Positions 14,367 through 29,148 of a stretch of DNA of 64,000 nt are shown in pieces. Within the stretch, counting starts at the first letter, position 1, and each line of letters begins with the position of its first letter. Source of the stretch: a phage; NCBI GenBank assembly GCA_036439915.1, contig GCA_036439915.1_3065.1; one strand, written 5' to 3'. Both the position numbers and the translations under genes were made by a program. The notes below the pieces were generated by a model. The model saw only the letters and a list, made by a program, of their open reading frames with translations, had not been told where the DNA came from and ran no database searches.

Positions 14367-14729
14367 TTAAAAGAATTTAAATTTTTTCTTTGACCTTTTA
14401 TTAAATGCATCTTGTAGTTGCATTGTAATACATTTTTCTACATGAGGAGCTAACTCAGCTTTTCTTTCTTGGTCAAGAACAGCAAAGTCCATTACGACTT
14501 TTCCATCAACCCAATCTAATTTTGTCACATACACAATGTGTGTAGAACCATCTTCTAGTTTAATGACAATCTCCTGGATAACATTTTCCATGGCAGATTT
14601 AATTATCTTAAGAGATTCATTAAAAAGACGTTCTTTTCTTTCTTCTTCCCCCTCCGAAGAGGGGGATTCATCGATAATTTCTAGATCTAAATCTAAATCA
14701 TCTTTATTCATTAAATTCTTCCATATCAC
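14367..14729 (-). CDS. 40: gp40-like protein (by position)
   Basis: 120-aa acidic ORF between uvsX and 41. Confidence 0.5.
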   Translation of the reverse strand: MIWKNLMNKDDLDLDLEIIDESPSSEGEEERKERLFNESLKIIKSAMENVIQEIVIKLEDGSTHIVYVTKLDWVDGKVVMDFAVLDQERKAELAPHVEKCITMQLQDAFNKRSKKKFKFF

Positions 14730-15885
14730 TTAACTGCTCGAGGTCAGTTTCTAAATCAGCAGCTGATTTACTTTTACTTTCTGGAGATTTAAATTTTTCA
14801 ACCTTTGAGTTAATTAATTCATCAACTTCAGCTTCAACAATTTCATTACTATCAATAGCACCTAATTGATAAGCACGTTTAATAGCATCTCGGAATGGCT
14901 GATGTTTAAATAAAGGACCCCAGAATGTAGTGCAATTGGTATCTTTTGCGCGCCAAGATTTTTCTTCGCGAATCATCTCGCCGGTTTCTTCATCAAGAAA
15001 TTCACGAGCATACCAGCCATTTTTAGGTTTTACTACAAATCCTAATTCAAGAGCCATATCTAACAATCCAGAATAAGGATCGATACCACCGTCAAATTTA
15101 ACATCAATAAAGAATTTACTTTTTTCTTTAACGGTACGAGATTTTTCTACATTTAGAACAAATTGATACCCTTGAAGATCAGAACCATCTTTAATCTGAC
15201 GCTTACCGATAATGAACACAGTATCAGCCGAATACATTACGCCTGTACCACCTGTCATCACGGTTTTACTAAACATTTCAATTGTTTCAATTGTATGGTT
15301 AACCGCAACGCATGGAATGTTTTTAATACTAAAATAAGGAGTAACAATACGGAATAATGACTTCAGTGATTTAGCACGAGTCATATCTGCCACAGATTTT
15401 TCATTCAAGGCATCTTCCGTTTCTTTCTTAGAAGCCATATTACCGATTGAGTCGATGAATACAATAACTTTTTCACCGCGCTCAATAGCTTCAAGCTGAT
15501 TCACCATATCAATTTTCAGTTGTTCAACTGACTGAATTGGCGTATGAATTACTCGTTCCGGGTCAACTCCCATGGATCGCAAATAAGCTGGAGTAATACC
15601 AAATTCGCTATCATAGAATAAACAAACTGCGTCAGGATATTTGTTCAAATACGCCGCAACCATAGTCAAAGACATATTTGATTTAAAGTGTTTAGAAGGA
15701 CCTGCGAAAATAGTTAAACCGGACTGCATTCCACCATCAATCGCACCGGAAATAGCGATATTAAGCATTGGAATTTTTGTACGAATTACATCCTTTTCAT
15801 TAAAGAATTTAGATGTAGTCAGTTCAGCAGTCATTTTAGAAGTGGAAGCTTTAATCAAACGGGATTTTAAATCTGCAATAGACAT
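14704..15885 (-). CDS. uvsX: UvsX recombinase (RecA-like)
   Basis: 393 aa, P-loop FAGPSKHFKS, RecA-like core, T4 synteny. Confidence 0.9.
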   Translation of the reverse strand: MSIADLKSRLIKASTSKMTAELTTSKFFNEKDVIRTKIPMLNIAISGAIDGGMQSGLTIFAGPSKHFKSNMSLTMVAAYLNKYPDAVCLFYDSEFGITPAYLRSMGVDPERVIHTPIQSVEQLKIDMVNQLEAIERGEKVIVFIDSIGNMASKKETEDALNEKSVADMTRAKSLKSLFRIVTPYFSIKNIPCVAVNHTIETIEMFSKTVMTGGTGVMYSADTVFIIGKRQIKDGSDLQGYQFVLNVEKSRTVKEKSKFFIDVKFDGGIDPYSGLLDMALELGFVVKPKNGWYAREFLDEETGEMIREEKSWRAKDTNCTTFWGPLFKHQPFRDAIKRAYQLGAIDSNEIVEAEVDELINSKVEKFKSPESKSKSAADLETDLEQLSDMEEFNE

Positions 15886-15962
15886 TCATTTTTTCCATAG
15901 GCATCATTATATTTTCCTCACTGGTTAAAGATAGGGTAATTATAACACAATAAATTTAGGCA

Positions 15963-16811
15963 TTAATCAACTGCTATTGGATGAATAGCATTAAACTTAT
16001 GAAACGCTTCTGATTTTTCTTTGCGCGAAACACACATGCGAAGAACCTTTAATGGCTCGTCTTCTTCACCTAATGATTTTCGTTTTTCAATATTCGATGT
16101 TTTCCAACGAGCTTGCTCTGGAAACTCTCTATTGATTTGCTCAAGCGCTCTATTATGTTTTGAATTACTACGAATTGAACTACATCCGCCAGGAGCTTGT
16201 GCTTTTCCGGATACAACCAGATATTTGAACAAGGCCAAATGCGGATAACCTTGATTAATTAAATTGAGAAATGCGTACATATCTTCGCATAAATCAATTT
16301 TTCCATACCCAATTTGTTCTGTTGTAAGTTTTCCAAGGTCATACCATGTATTCGTGAATCCATATGAATTTTCACGATAATTACCCCAAGATGAAGTAAT
16401 TTTAAAAATAGGTAGACGAGCATGGCCATGATAATACCCGCAATCCATGGCATCTTCAACGTATTGAATTAATTCATAGAACTGTTCACGGGTTAATTGA
16501 TTAATTTTATCTACGCAGCGACGATCATCTTTCTTTCGCATTGAACTCATACGAATAGTAGTATCATCATCGATCATCCAAATTCGCTGACCTGCATACA
16601 TATCAGTAATTGCTTTACGAGTTCCAGCAATTCCATTAACATCATCAGGAATAGTTATAATTTTAGCTCTAGACCCATAAGCGTCATAATAAGCTTTTTC
16701 TTCGTGTTTACGTACTACAATATGAGGTTCATAATCAGATGGAAACATATCAAGGGCAGAAACTGCCCCTACGCGTTGATAGCTTGGAATTACGAATTGA
16801 ATCATTTCCAC
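15963..16811 (-). CDS. glycosyltransferase, possibly T2/T6-type HMC glucosyltransferase
   Basis: 282 aa, DXD-like IWMIDDD; occupies the T4 beta-gt locus but is shorter than T4 beta-gt. Confidence 0.5.
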   Translation of the reverse strand: MEMIQFVIPSYQRVGAVSALDMFPSDYEPHIVVRKHEEKAYYDAYGSRAKIITIPDDVNGIAGTRKAITDMYAGQRIWMIDDDTTIRMSSMRKKDDRRCVDKINQLTREQFYELIQYVEDAMDCGYYHGHARLPIFKITSSWGNYRENSYGFTNTWYDLGKLTTEQIGYGKIDLCEDMYAFLNLINQGYPHLALFKYLVVSGKAQAPGGCSSIRSNSKHNRALEQINREFPEQARWKTSNIEKRKSLGEEDEPLKVLRMCVSRKEKSEAFHKFNAIHPIAVD

Positions 16812-17542
16812 TCACCGTTATAATCTTTTTTCGCAATATGAGTTTCGCCAGTTTTCCACCAATGGTCAACCAAGTAAAAATGACGGGAATACACATGAAG
16901 ACTTCCGACATTCCATATAATAGAACCCGCTTTATACTGGCGAGTTGAATCACCTGCATTCAAATCAGATACTAATTTATCTAGTACGTATTTTTGCCAC
17001 GCATAATCATTGCGGAATCCGAAGACCACGTCATTTGAGCGCATGTTAACTACTGCATTGACTTTCTTATCACGAATCAGATACTGTACTGTATTCGTAC
17101 ACATGAAATCTGACATACCATCTTTATTGTAGTCAAACTGCATGGATGGACGAGTATAAATCATGATACCACGTCGAGAATCAGGATTTTGACCAAGTTC
17201 AGCTAAACACATGTCATACTGAGCATAGTTATCTTCTGACCAGATGGCCCAACCATAATTCGAGTTAATTTCGCCTTTAGAAGATGCTACCTGCTGCCAA
17301 ATCTTTGGTGTTTCACCTGGAATATCTTTAACAAACAAGCTCTTAGATTTATACCATTCAAGTTCACGCTGAATGTATTCATCATTAAGAGCGCCAAAAA
17401 TAAACGGTTCATCTGCTACAAATGATGCGCCAATAATTTCAATAGTTTTAACACCGGTTTTATCAATTACGAAATCTTTTTCCTTTAACGCAATTCCCAA
17501 ATGAAGACGAGTTTCTTCAACTGTCAAAGAGTCATTAATCAT
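16802..17542 (-). CDS. 42: dCMP hydroxymethylase gp42
   Basis: 246 aa, thymidylate-synthase-like, close match to remembered T4 gp42. Confidence 0.9.
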   Translation of the reverse strand: MINDSLTVEETRLHLGIALKEKDFVIDKTGVKTIEIIGASFVADEPFIFGALNDEYIQRELEWYKSKSLFVKDIPGETPKIWQQVASSKGEINSNYGWAIWSEDNYAQYDMCLAELGQNPDSRRGIMIYTRPSMQFDYNKDGMSDFMCTNTVQYLIRDKKVNAVVNMRSNDVVFGFRNDYAWQKYVLDKLVSDLNAGDSTRQYKAGSIIWNVGSLHVYSRHFYLVDHWWKTGETHIAKKDYNGEWK

Positions 17543-17695
17543 TTAAACCTCAATTGATACATTCATATTTAACTTGTAACAGTAATAAACCCCAACCTAA
17601 AATAATAGTTGGAATCATAAGAGGAACCGTTACACTATAGTATATACTTATTATAATCATCAAGATTAAAAGCAACACTGCTATAATTTTGCTTT

Positions 17696-17947
17696 TCATT
17701 CCTTCTCTCTGATGATAATTACTTGATTTGGCTGTGCAGACTTTTTGGTTTCACCCGCAATTGACCAAATAAATGTAATAAACCAACCAATGATTGACCA
17801 GTTAAACAGTAAAGATGTAAAAAAGATTCCTACTGTCGATTTTGACCCACGCATCAAGGCGATGAACCATGGGAGCATGTATATAATAATAGCCAACACA
17901 CCTGAAACTAAAACCATAAAAATTGAACCTGCTACTAAAGTTTCCAT
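17696..17947 (-). CDS. imm: superinfection immunity protein Imm
   Basis: 83 aa, two TM segments, same size as T4 Imm. Confidence 0.8.
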   Translation of the reverse strand: METLVAGSIFMVLVSGVLAIIIYMLPWFIALMRGSKSTVGIFFTSLLFNWSIIGWFITFIWSIAGETKKSAQPNQVIIIREKE

Positions 17948-17954
17948 GTTTTCC

Positions 17955-18335
17955 TCACTTAGTCAAATTTTTTACGCATGAATTATAAGAATTTACTACA
18001 TACTCCATCGGAGCATTTTTACCAGTACGCCATTGATAATTATTAGCCCAATTAGCCCAAAGTTCGGCACAGTAACTTTCAATTTTTTCTTCACGTGTAA
18101 TCACATCTGAATTACGATATGCTTGAGCAGATTCATCTGGACGAATAGCTTCGTCAAAATTCGCCTGCATTTGTTCTACTGTCTGTTTTGGAGCTTCTTT
18201 ATAACACTTAACATTAGGATTATAAAATTTGCTTGAACAGTTTACAATTTTTCCTACATCAGATTGATTTACTACCGGTCCTTGAGCTACACAACCAGTA
18301 AGACCCAATGCAATAACCAAAATAGCGATTTTCAT
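17955..18335 (-). CDS. lipoprotein (imm.1 position)
   Basis: 126 aa from internal Met; lipobox LTGC; ORF-track N-terminus is read-through of the promoter leader. Confidence 0.6.
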   Translation of the reverse strand: MKIAILVIALGLTGCVAQGPVVNQSDVGKIVNCSSKFYNPNVKCYKEAPKQTVEQMQANFDEAIRPDESAQAYRNSDVITREEKIESYCAELWANWANNYQWRTGKNAPMEYVVNSYNSCVKNLTK

Positions 18336-18369
18336 TTCATTCTCCAAATCCGCATCAGTTGATAGTTGT

Positions 18370-18399
18370 ATAGTACCACGGAAGAACAGAGATGTAAAC
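18370..18399 (-). promoter_or_regulatory. sigma70-type early promoter with conserved leader
   Basis: GTTTAC, 18 bp, TGGTACTAT, then leader ACAACTATCAACTGA. Confidence 0.6.
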
Positions 18400-18482
18400 A
18401 GTTTTGTGAAAAAACTTTTAATGAATTCCAGAGGTCCAGAATCATCTATTTTTCCTAAGTATAGATTTATATTACTTGTATG

Positions 18483-18504
18483 AAAAAGGGACCCGGAGGT
18501 CCCT
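18483..18504 (-). terminator. intrinsic terminator after gene 43
   Basis: GGGACC-CGGA-GGTCCC hairpin plus T-run. Confidence 0.6.
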
Positions 18505-18516
18505 AGATTTATTCTA

Positions 18517-21213
18517 TCAGCCAAACAGGAAGTCTAACGAAGCTTTTTCTTCATAGTCCATACCCGCCGATTCACACATACCCGCAAGCGGTTTAACAAA
18601 CGATTTTTGGAACAAAGTTGAGTAGTCAATCCAAGACAGTACATCAGAACGAATTTCTTTTGGAAGTTCCGTACCCGATGGCCAAGCAATACACTTGTCA
18701 CCAAATGGATTTCCCTCACGTAATGGAAGAACCATTACTTTATTTCCATCCAAAATTGGAGCTACACCTAAACCGCTAACAGCTCGACGATAAGTTAGCA
18801 CCCCACGAATGTGGAACGGGCATTTAAATCCTGGCCAACCTTTATCGTCATATTTCGCTATATCGTTCGCGGTTTTTACTTCAGCAATAACTTTATAGTC
18901 AAGTTGACGATATTCTTTCTCAAAGTTCTTGTAGTATTCTTGGACAGACTCTTCACCTTCCTGAAGAATACGACGAATACTTTCTTCGAGAGCTTCTTGT
19001 ACTGCTTTTGGTGTTGAACTCTGCTGAGTTTCCATACCCATGATTTTTAGATGTGGTTCAGCAAATCGCTTATCTTCCATATCATAAACGTTCAGAGCAT
19101 AACGTTTTTTCGCTTTCCAAAATCCACCAACACCCTTTGAACCAAGCGGAGGACAAGAAATAGCTTCACGGTCCATATGCATCAGATGCTCGCGGTTATT
19201 CATATAATCACATAACTCACGATATGCAACATCAATCATAGGTTCCATCTTTTTCTTACCGAACTGATTCATGAATTCAACTAAATCATTTTGTTCTTTA
19301 AAGCGGTCAAGACCTACTTTTTCAATAACTTTATCTACACAAACATATACAGAATCAGTATCACCCGCTGCGATGAAATCTTCGCCATTAGTTCCACACA
19401 CCTTATTCAGGTATTCATTAATTTTACGAGCAATCCACTGAATACCAACTTGACCAAAAATTGTGATAGCAGTAGCATTTCGCAAATCATAGTAACGGAA
19501 ATGAATATTACCAAGAGCACCATAAAGACTGTTGATAAGAATTTTACGGTTTAGCTGATTTGTGTTAGCAAGTGTAGCTGCTTTTTCACATTCTTCGATC
19601 AGACTATTAAGAACAGATTCGGTGTAATTCGATAATTCATTTAAGAAATCATCATTGAACTTAACATATCGTTCAACTTCTGGTTTAGTTGAGCGAGACC
19701 CTGCACCTTTCATAATAATCTTTTTAATAGCTTCGGCATTCATTTCTTCGGCGAACATTTTCTTTTTCCAATCTTTACGTTGGAAAAATACTTTAGCGAT
19801 TTCCTTTGGAATGATACCTTCTTGATGCTTATCATACATCCATCCATTCGGAGAACAAGAATATTCATCACTTGGCTTAGGAGCTGTTCCTGCGATATAT
19901 TCATGAATTGGATGAACTTTAAACTGCCCACGAATAGTCTCAGGACTAATGTTAACCTGACGAATAATGCTAGGATACAGAGACGTCAAGTCAAAACTCA
20001 TAATGTATCGACGGGCAATCGCTTTAGGTTCAAACACAAATGCACCTGGAAAACTTTGTTTAACGTGCGAACCTTGTTGAGGAATAACCTTATGTTCACC
20101 TTTCAGTGAGTTAAAAATAATAGCATCCCAAGTTTTAATAGGACTCATTACACCAGAAAAAGGCATTTTAGCGTAATAAGACATACTTAAAACTAGATCG
20201 ATAAACCCACGAATTTTATCAATTGCTTGAACTGATTCTACGTCAATAATGTTATAACTAATGTATCGTTGATGATTAGTCTCACGAAGTTTATTAATAG
20301 GACCATCATATGGTAATTTACCTTTTTTGGTTTCATGTTGAGCAACTGATTCCAAAGAGAACGATGGCAAATTAGTAAATGCGAATTTCTTGTACAAATC
20401 TAAATAATCAAGAATAGATACGCCATCAATAGAATAAATTTCTTTGCTACCGTACATATTTTGAATTAGTTTAGATTTTACTCGACCGATTGGAGAGAAG
20501 CGTTTCATACTACGTTCGCCGAGAACCATTTTAACACGATTCATGATATACGGAACGTCAAATCCCTCAATATTCCAACCAGTAAAAATAGCAGGTCGTT
20601 TCTGTTCCCAGAGATTAATATATTCCATGAGCATATCACGCTCATTATCAAATGGCATATAAATTACTCGGTCAAGAATTTCTTGAGGAACTTCATCACC
20701 ACCTTCACAGTCAAGTTTAGCAGCTAACTTTGCATCCCATTTTGATACTGAACCGTACATTGAATTCAACAAATCAAAGACGTAAAAACGGTCGTCAATT
20801 GAATCATAATGAGTGATAGCATCAATTTCATATTCTGCTTTCATTGGGTCAGGAAATTTATCACCAGTAACCTCAATGTCACAGTTAGCTACACGAACAA
20901 ATTTTCGGTCATAAACAATTTCTGAACCATATGTATCACTGATATAAGCGAGTTTAAAATCGTTCATACCGAGAGCTTCGAGACCGATGTCTTCCATTCG
21001 TTTCATCCAATCTCGTGCATCTTTCATTGATGGAAATTTTTGAGGAGCGCAGTTTTTACCGTAAATGTCTTTGTATTTTGATTCTTCCTTACAATGACTA
21101 AACATAGTCGGAAGATATTCTACTTCGCGAGTACGTTCCTTTCCATTTTCATCAATATAACGTTCAACAATATTATTTCCGACTGTTTCGATAGAGATAT
21201 AAAATTCTTTCAT
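18517..21213 (-). CDS. 43: DNA polymerase gp43 (family B)
   Basis: 898 aa, exo and pol motifs, same length as T4 gp43. Confidence 0.95.
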   Translation of the reverse strand: MKEFYISIETVGNNIVERYIDENGKERTREVEYLPTMFSHCKEESKYKDIYGKNCAPQKFPSMKDARDWMKRMEDIGLEALGMNDFKLAYISDTYGSEIVYDRKFVRVANCDIEVTGDKFPDPMKAEYEIDAITHYDSIDDRFYVFDLLNSMYGSVSKWDAKLAAKLDCEGGDEVPQEILDRVIYMPFDNERDMLMEYINLWEQKRPAIFTGWNIEGFDVPYIMNRVKMVLGERSMKRFSPIGRVKSKLIQNMYGSKEIYSIDGVSILDYLDLYKKFAFTNLPSFSLESVAQHETKKGKLPYDGPINKLRETNHQRYISYNIIDVESVQAIDKIRGFIDLVLSMSYYAKMPFSGVMSPIKTWDAIIFNSLKGEHKVIPQQGSHVKQSFPGAFVFEPKAIARRYIMSFDLTSLYPSIIRQVNISPETIRGQFKVHPIHEYIAGTAPKPSDEYSCSPNGWMYDKHQEGIIPKEIAKVFFQRKDWKKKMFAEEMNAEAIKKIIMKGAGSRSTKPEVERYVKFNDDFLNELSNYTESVLNSLIEECEKAATLANTNQLNRKILINSLYGALGNIHFRYYDLRNATAITIFGQVGIQWIARKINEYLNKVCGTNGEDFIAAGDTDSVYVCVDKVIEKVGLDRFKEQNDLVEFMNQFGKKKMEPMIDVAYRELCDYMNNREHLMHMDREAISCPPLGSKGVGGFWKAKKRYALNVYDMEDKRFAEPHLKIMGMETQQSSTPKAVQEALEESIRRILQEGEESVQEYYKNFEKEYRQLDYKVIAEVKTANDIAKYDDKGWPGFKCPFHIRGVLTYRRAVSGLGVAPILDGNKVMVLPLREGNPFGDKCIAWPSGTELPKEIRSDVLSWIDYSTLFQKSFVKPLAGMCESAGMDYEEKASLDFLFG

Positions 21214-27928: not shown

Positions 27929-27949
27929 TAAAGGGCCGAAGCCCTTTAT
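27929..27949 (-). terminator. intrinsic terminator overlapping a-gt stop
   Basis: GGGCTTCGGCCC hairpin then TTTAGCTTTAT. Confidence 0.55.
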
Positions 27950-29148
27950 TTTGTAATAATGTCAAACTGCTCTTTAAAGCAGAAGCTTGAATCTTGGTGC
28001 TGATACAAAAATTCATAAGCTTTTTCACGTTCACGGTCATAAAGAACTCGGTCAGATGACAGTTCTTTAATACGTTCAAATGTTGATTCCATGTCATTTT
28101 CATCAAACCAAACGATACCGCTATCGTGTGAAATTAATGGAGTGTTATCAACACGGAATTTTAAATTTTCGCCAGTAGATTTCCAAAATACTGGAATTGT
28201 TCCGCATGCACCAAGCTCGAGATGAGTATATTCTAAAGAACGTTGTAGATATTTTTTATCTAATTTACTCAGCTGATAACCAAATCCGGATTTACTCATG
28301 CGTTCAAGCATTTCGCTATTTACATAACGGTCGAGAATTTGCGTTGGCAAATTAGGAGCAATTTTAATTTGGTCTACTTGATGAAGACGATAATACTCGT
28401 ATGGAATTCCTTTTTCTTTAATAGGAATGAACGCTGGAGAACGTTCCAGACCTTCCATAATAGTACTCAATCCCGCAGGTTTAAGATGTTTTTCATGAAA
28501 ATCAAACATCTGATAAAAGCCTTTCCATGTAGTAGTACGACCAATCCAACGGTTGATATTCATGTTAATTTCAGAAACATCTTTCCAGTAGGTTGATCGA
28601 ACCTTCGCAATATCCATAGGAGGCTGAAAGTTATATACGGTCGGCGCTTCTTCAATATCATCAAACAGAGAAACTGTTTCTGGATACCATTCTTTCATCA
28701 AAACTTTATTAAAATCGCCATTATCAGAATGACTAAAAATAACATCAGCTCGACGAACAGTTTCTTCTAATCCCAAATTTCGGCGTAAAGAAAGAGAAGA
28801 ATGGTCATGTTGATAAACTACAACACGAACCGAAGGTTTAATGTTATCAATAATTTTTTTATAGTTATTAATAGTGTCTTCTTCGACTGAAGTAGCAGGA
28901 ACTGAATTGATAATTAGAATATCACAATCATTTACCAGCTTAAGCGTTTTATCGTATTCTTTTGCCAATAAAACCGGAATTGAAAATGATTTATAATCAT
29001 GCGCGCAATTACGAGTAAATGATTTATCTTTAGCATAAACCAAAGTTACTTCATGACCATTTTTAATAAACCAATCACGCTGCTCAAGAGAAAATTTAGT
29101 TACACCGCAACCTTCAAGACCTCGAGCCATAAAAATGCATACTTTCAT
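27946..29148 (-). CDS. a-gt: HMC alpha-glucosyltransferase
   Basis: 400 aa, same size and strong resemblance to remembered T4 a-gt. Confidence 0.85.
   Translation of the reverse strand: MKVCIFMARGLEGCGVTKFSLEQRDWFIKNGHEVTLVYAKDKSFTRNCAHDYKSFSIPVLLAKEYDKTLKLVNDCDILIINSVPATSVEEDTINNYKKIIDNIKPSVRVVVYQHDHSSLSLRRNLGLEETVRRADVIFSHSDNGDFNKVLMKEWYPETVSLFDDIEEAPTVYNFQPPMDIAKVRSTYWKDVSEINMNINRWIGRTTTWKGFYQMFDFHEKHLKPAGLSTIMEGLERSPAFIPIKEKGIPYEYYRLHQVDQIKIAPNLPTQILDRYVNSEMLERMSKSGFGYQLSKLDKKYLQRSLEYTHLELGACGTIPVFWKSTGENLKFRVDNTPLISHDSGIVWFDENDMESTFERIKELSSDRVLYDREREKAYEFLYQHQDSSFCFKEQFDIITK

Follow-up and report, generated by a model that had tools for sequence, protein, structure and literature searches.

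Locus and neighboring genes

Which glycosyltransferase does a T4-like phage carry between uvsX and gene 42 if it is not that of T4, and what would it imply for the sugars on the phage DNA? In the T4 map, this slot is occupied by segA and b-gt, the latter encoding a beta-glucosyltransferase of 351 aa, which agrees with the approximately 350 aa given for that place in an earlier, sequence-only reading. In the phage DNA analyzed here (a stretch of 64,000 nucleotides, hereafter the window), that reading had found a protein of 282 aa between uvsX and gene 42 and had taken it for a glycosyltransferase different from the T4 enzyme. Over stretches of 8-25 kb, the window shows ~97% identity with several Tequatroviruses.

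The ORF list confirmed a minus-strand, GTG-initiated frame of 282 aa at 15963..16811. An ATG at 16805, two codons downstream of the GTG at 16811, overlaps the stop codon of gene 42 as ATGA, and all orthologues examined (T2, T6, Geo, EH2, and RB14) are annotated from the equivalent ATG, with a CDS of 843 nt. Because of these annotations and the ATGA overlap, the real product is most likely a protein of 280 aa starting at ATG 16805; the reported ORF is thus real, with its GTG start adding two codons. We annotate the gene as ba-gt (ggt/TAGT; beta-glucosyl-HMC-alpha-glucosyltransferase) at 15963..16805 on the minus strand, based on the ORF list, the matches to PHROG 842 and PF20691, the identity to the T2 and T6 enzymes, and megablast, as described below.

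Both flanking genes lie on the same strand and were confirmed by tblastn, as expected from the sequence-only reading. Gene 42 (16802..17542, minus strand), encoding dCMP hydroxymethylase, is 95.9% identical to T4 gp42 and has 4 nt (ATGA) in common with ba-gt, an overlap suggestive of translational coupling of the two genes. The downstream landmark uvsX (14704..15885, minus strand), whose product is 90.5% identical to T4 UvsX, is separated from ba-gt by a gap of only 77 nt (15886..15962). The slot and the orientation match the maps of T2, T6, and Geo. In T4, segA, encoding a GIY-YIG homing endonuclease, adjoins b-gt at this spot, whereas tblastn detected no segA homologue anywhere in the 64-kb window. 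Besides, the T4-like alpha-glucosyltransferase gene previously noticed at 27946..29148 (minus strand) proved to be a-gt: its product of 400 aa showed 91% identity to T4 a-gt over the full length, and the gene was also detected by tblastn. Thus, alpha-gt and gene 42, which encode the enzymes making the acceptor, are both found in the window together with ba-gt.

Two further reading frames were observed upstream of gene 42. Between gene 42 and imm there is a hydrophobic ORF of 49 aa at 17550..17699 (minus strand), which overlaps the stop of imm by 4 nt. The T4 annotation contains no counterpart, but that of phage Geo has one, equal in size and position (GEO_049). The mechanical ORF at 17955..18524 (minus strand) covers 189 aa from a TTG, and the real gene there is probably an imm.1 homologue of ~126 aa that begins at an internal lipoprotein-like signal, 'MKIAILVIALGLTGC', as is the case in T4, T2, and T6.

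Family membership and distribution

We searched the protein against family profiles and found that it matches PHROG 842, 'beta-glucosyl-HMC-alpha-glucosyltransferase', with an E value of 7e-89 over profile positions 3-269 of 270. It also matches the Pfam family PF20691 (TET-associated glycosyltransferase, TAGT) with 38.3 bits, above the gathering cut-off of 27.5 bits, residues 5-209 corresponding to profile positions 2-205 of 205. Over 280 aa, gapless alignments gave amino acid identities of 97.9% with T2 ba-gt and 97.1% with T6 ba-gt, in line with the T2/T6-like sugar pattern proposed from the sequence-only reading, and identities, likewise gapless, of 98.6% with the EH2 protein, 98.6% with that of RB14, and 96.8% with that of Geo.

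Megablast of the ba-gt gene matched 479 phage records, 475 of them full-length with 90-99% identity, derived from Tequatroviruses of Escherichia, Shigella, Yersinia, Salmonella, and Citrobacter; many of them are annotated as beta-glucosyl-HMC-alpha-glucosyltransferase. Among protein clusters, the 99%-identical representative stands for 485 member sequences. T4 b-gt DNA matched just 29 records, most of which are T4 or near-identical strains. Thus, ba-gt in this slot is the majority state of Tequatrovirus (479 versus 29 records), and T4 is the exception.

Taken as a whole, the ORF is very probably the orthologue of the T2/T6 beta-glucosyl-HMC-alpha-glucosyltransferase (ba-gt, ggt, g-gt, or TAGT), acting in a gentiobiosyl pathway of the T2/T6 type. 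We base this on sequence identity and synteny, on membership in the family, on the predicted fold and the conserved motifs, and on the co-occurring alpha-gt; for the chemistry, the ratio of mono- to di-glucosylated bases, and the role in defense, we rely on publications about T2, T6, and their close relatives. The gene, its position, fold, product, and counter-defense role are all already known, and the protein is an ordinary representative of a family found in hundreds of phages. The original cloning of ba-gt is reportedly that of Winkler and Rueger in 1993.

Conserved motifs and predicted fold

The stretch IWMIDDD, which had been pointed out as DXD-like, contains three consecutive aspartates (D79-D80-D81) encoded by GATGATGAT at 16563..16571 (minus strand). 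They follow a predicted beta-strand (residues 74-77) and are invariant in 10 homologues with 30-77% identity. By analogy with GT-A enzymology, DDD would be a DXD-type motif binding metal and nucleotide sugar, with a putative catalytic role. A second conserved element, IPSYQR (residues 6-11; 16773..16790, minus strand), lies on the first beta-strand (residues 3-7 in the model) and its loop, and the alignment shows I6, P7, S8, Y9, and R11 to be unchanged throughout the family.

A sequence search of the PDB gave only chance matches to His-tagged RNA-binding proteins, none with an E value below 0.76, and hence no solved relative detectable by sequence; for this reason, the fold was taken from a predicted model. 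The model has a GT-A fold, that is, a single Rossmann-like alpha/beta/alpha domain similar to those in solved structures of this class, in which DDD sits straight after a core strand; loops 132-149 and 202-206 are of low confidence. This accords with an AlphaFold3 model of T6 TAGT, which is also of the GT-A type and clusters beside GT2 enzymes (PMC13216743). The cellular GT2-like GT-A enzymes WrtF (9omh), AvpGT (9jma), TarP (6h1j), and TarS (5tze) share only 7-16% sequence identity with the window protein, and they differ from it in their acceptor, which is a lipid, teichoic acid, or glycan, whereas that of ba-gt is a sugar on DNA.

Comparison with T4 beta-glucosyltransferase

These data bear on whether the protein could be T4 beta-glucosyltransferase in a diverged or shortened form, as the shared slot and the designation 'b-gt' in some GenBank records would suggest. 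We found no significant similarity between T4 b-gt and the window protein (best BLASTP E value of 3.4, over 8 residues), and tblastn revealed no T4 b-gt homologue elsewhere in the 64-kb window (best E value of 3.8). In addition, the T4 b-gt domain PF09198 did not match the window protein at E values up to 1, Pfam assigning it to TAGT instead, and the predicted GT-A fold is at odds with the GT-B fold of T4 b-gt (PMC13216743). A diverged T4 b-gt is therefore ruled out by Pfam, BLASTP, tblastn, and the predicted fold. The sequence-only reading was right to separate the protein from T4 beta-gt: it does not align with that enzyme, belongs to TAGT/PHROG 842, has a predicted GT-A fold, and keeps the candidate catalytic residues.

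What ba-gt shares with T4 b-gt is the genomic position, the hmC DNA of T-even phages as the target, UDP-glucose as the donor (according to the literature), and the making of a beta linkage. The two differ in their acceptor, which in the literature is bare hmC for T4 b-gt and alpha-glucosyl-hmC for ba-gt.

Proposed modification pathway

The TAGT of T2 and T6 adds a glucosyl residue to alpha-glucosylated hmC, yielding gentiobiosyl-hmC (PMC13216743). The vast majority of phages carry an alpha-GT or a beta-GT together with a TAGT, and the pair of alpha-GT and beta-GT occurs in only 6 of 753 genomes (PMC13216743). The paper on the Durham collection places TAGT 'at the position syntenic' with T4 beta-GT, and beta-glucosyl-hmC was found in none of ten natural Tequatroviruses with alpha-GT and TAGT whose DNA was measured by HPLC/MS (PMC13390438). 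The bases hmC, alpha-glucosyl-hmC, and gentiobiosyl-hmC occur at a ratio of ~1:2:2 in Geo, EL, and BGP, while in EH2 and others gentiobiosyl-hmC accounts for about two thirds and hmC for the remaining third (PMC13390438).

By analogy with these phages, gp42 would make hm-dCMP, which would be incorporated instead of dCMP, and alpha-GT would then move glucose from UDP-glucose onto hmC in alpha linkage. The resulting alpha-glucosyl-hmC is the presumed acceptor for ba-gt, which, through its GT-A fold and DDD, would attach a further glucose to the alpha-glucose through a beta-1,6 linkage to give gentiobiosyl-hmC. A beta linkage formed from UDP-alpha-glucose would imply an inverting mechanism, in agreement with a GT2-like fold. 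The predicted virion DNA should thus contain bare hmC (~25-33%), alpha-glucosyl-hmC, and gentiobiosyl-hmC, and lack beta-glucosyl-hmC.

The second glucose may shield alpha-glucosyl-hmC from defenses that read this base, the Brig1 glycosylase among them. When ba-gt is deleted from T6, the mutant has only alpha-glucosyl-hmC and shows raised sensitivity to Brig1 (PMC11078745), and a T6 g-gt deletion leaves the DNA open to glucose removal by BapA (bioRxiv 10.64898/2026.02.25.707755).

Allele comparison and expected activity

The window protein has the same length (280 aa) as the T2 and T6 enzymes and the same DDD and IPSYxR motifs; its gene likewise lies between uvsX and gene 42, overlapping the latter by 4 nt, and is accompanied by alpha-gt. 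Compared with most orthologues, its allele is substituted at four residues (S23, K33, K92, and I101), all outside invariant columns; they are found in neither T2 nor T6 and are conservative to moderate changes. As for EH2 and Geo, the synteny is the same, including, in Geo, the 49-aa ORF between gene 42 and imm. The DNA chemistry of EH2 and Geo has been characterized (hmC, alpha-glucosyl-hmC, and gentiobiosyl-hmC, with no beta-glucosyl-hmC).

It is conceivable that such an allele has shifted in specificity, using another sugar donor, acting directly on hmC, or forming another linkage, and that the modification is unlike that of T2 and T6. The TAGT family is diverse in function: its members also occur with beta-GT or in genomes without any alpha- or beta-GT, and distinct kinds of TAGT may exist (PMC13216743); moreover, the four substitutions are uncommon. 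Nevertheless, the protein is 97-99% identical to enzymes of phages in which gentiobiosyl-hmC has been measured, every invariant column is kept, the four substitutions fall at positions variable among homologues, and the allele group is a common one, as seen from the size of the 99%-identity cluster. We consider a shifted specificity highly improbable. Still more remote is the idea that S23, K33, K92, and I101 or the expression context alter the extent of modification or the acceptor or donor specificity so far that the sugar pattern leaves the range from T2 to T6, and no data point that way.

Within the preferred reading of a T2/T6-type gentiobiosyl pathway, the ratio of mono- to di-glucosylated bases cannot be read from the sequence: by classical measurements, gentiobiosyl-hmC makes up 72% in T6 and 5% in T2 (PMC6024577), yet the two enzymes are ~98% identical. 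An intact ba-gt might accordingly contribute little, leaving DNA that is mostly mono-alpha-glucosylated with a few percent gentiobiosyl-hmC, just as the T2 gene is intact and ~98% identical and the T2 DNA nonetheless holds ~5%; the extent of modification is not predictable from sequence. Against such low activity, T2 has the change R11H, while the window protein has R11, as do T6, EH2, Geo, RB14, Bas44, teqskov, and 303Ecol101PP. Furthermore, gentiobiosyl-hmC amounted to at least 40% of the modified bases in all ten Durham Tequatroviruses with alpha-GT and TAGT (PMC13390438). We regard T2-like low activity as unlikely. Since R11 is shared with T6 and the high-gentiobiosyl phages, we weakly infer that a substantial di-glucosyl fraction is likelier than the 5% of T2.

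The T2 ba-gt gene (AP018813, 7283-8125) is represented by one allele, with His at residue 11, in all eight T2 or T2-identical records. At this residue (codon 16773..16775 in the window), Arg is invariant in 10 diverse homologues, and His occurred only in T2 among the orthologues compared. On sequence grounds, R11H could be a candidate cause of the ~5% gentiobiosyl-hmC in T2 versus ~72% in T6.

Geo carries the DNA adenine methyltransferase Dam, whereas tblastn at E values up to 1e-3 found no homologue of Geo Dam in the window, inside which the region from gene 56 to gene 61, the Dam site in Geo, T2, and T4, should fall. In this respect, the window phage is like T6 and like EH2 as described in PMC13390438. 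The window ba-gt is also closer to that of EH2, which belongs to the group with about two thirds gentiobiosyl-hmC, than to that of Geo; together with the absence of Dam, this is only a correlation, and we did not use it as evidence for the ratio.

Naming and public records

The gene should be annotated as ba-gt/TAGT (beta-glucosyl-HMC-alpha-glucosyltransferase) and not as b-gt. With this name, the phage is predicted to have gentiobiosyl-hmC and alpha-glucosyl-hmC in its DNA and to lack beta-glucosyl-hmC, and the predicted sugar pattern bears on host range: according to published work, di-glucosylated bases are partly protected from Brig1 (PMC11078745) and from the glucose-removing BapA (bioRxiv 10.64898/2026.02.25.707755), and sensitivity to enzymes of the GmrSD/BrxU type remains (PMC13216743, PMC13390438).

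The two public T6 genomes carry changes in ba-gt that differ from each other and probably abolish function; both changes are absent from the window gene. In MH550421 (7138-7980), codon 10 is changed from CAG to TAG, and the annotated CDS restarts at Met20 and covers 261 aa. In AP018814 (4135-4974), one GAT of the GATGATGAT repeat is lost, turning the invariant DDD into DD. These lesions could be laboratory-stock variants or sequencing errors, and in view of them the T6 protein in RefSeq may have been annotated without its true N-terminus.

The gene names in GenBank are inconsistent and in places swapped. In RB55 (KM607002) and RB59 (KM607003), a gene 100% identical to T4 b-gt is labelled 'beta-glucosyl-HMC-alpha-glucosyl-transferase', and in T2 (LC348380) and PP01 (LC348379), the ba-gt/TAGT gene is given the symbol 'b-gt'. 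The RefSeq name for gene 42 is 'thymidylate synthase'.
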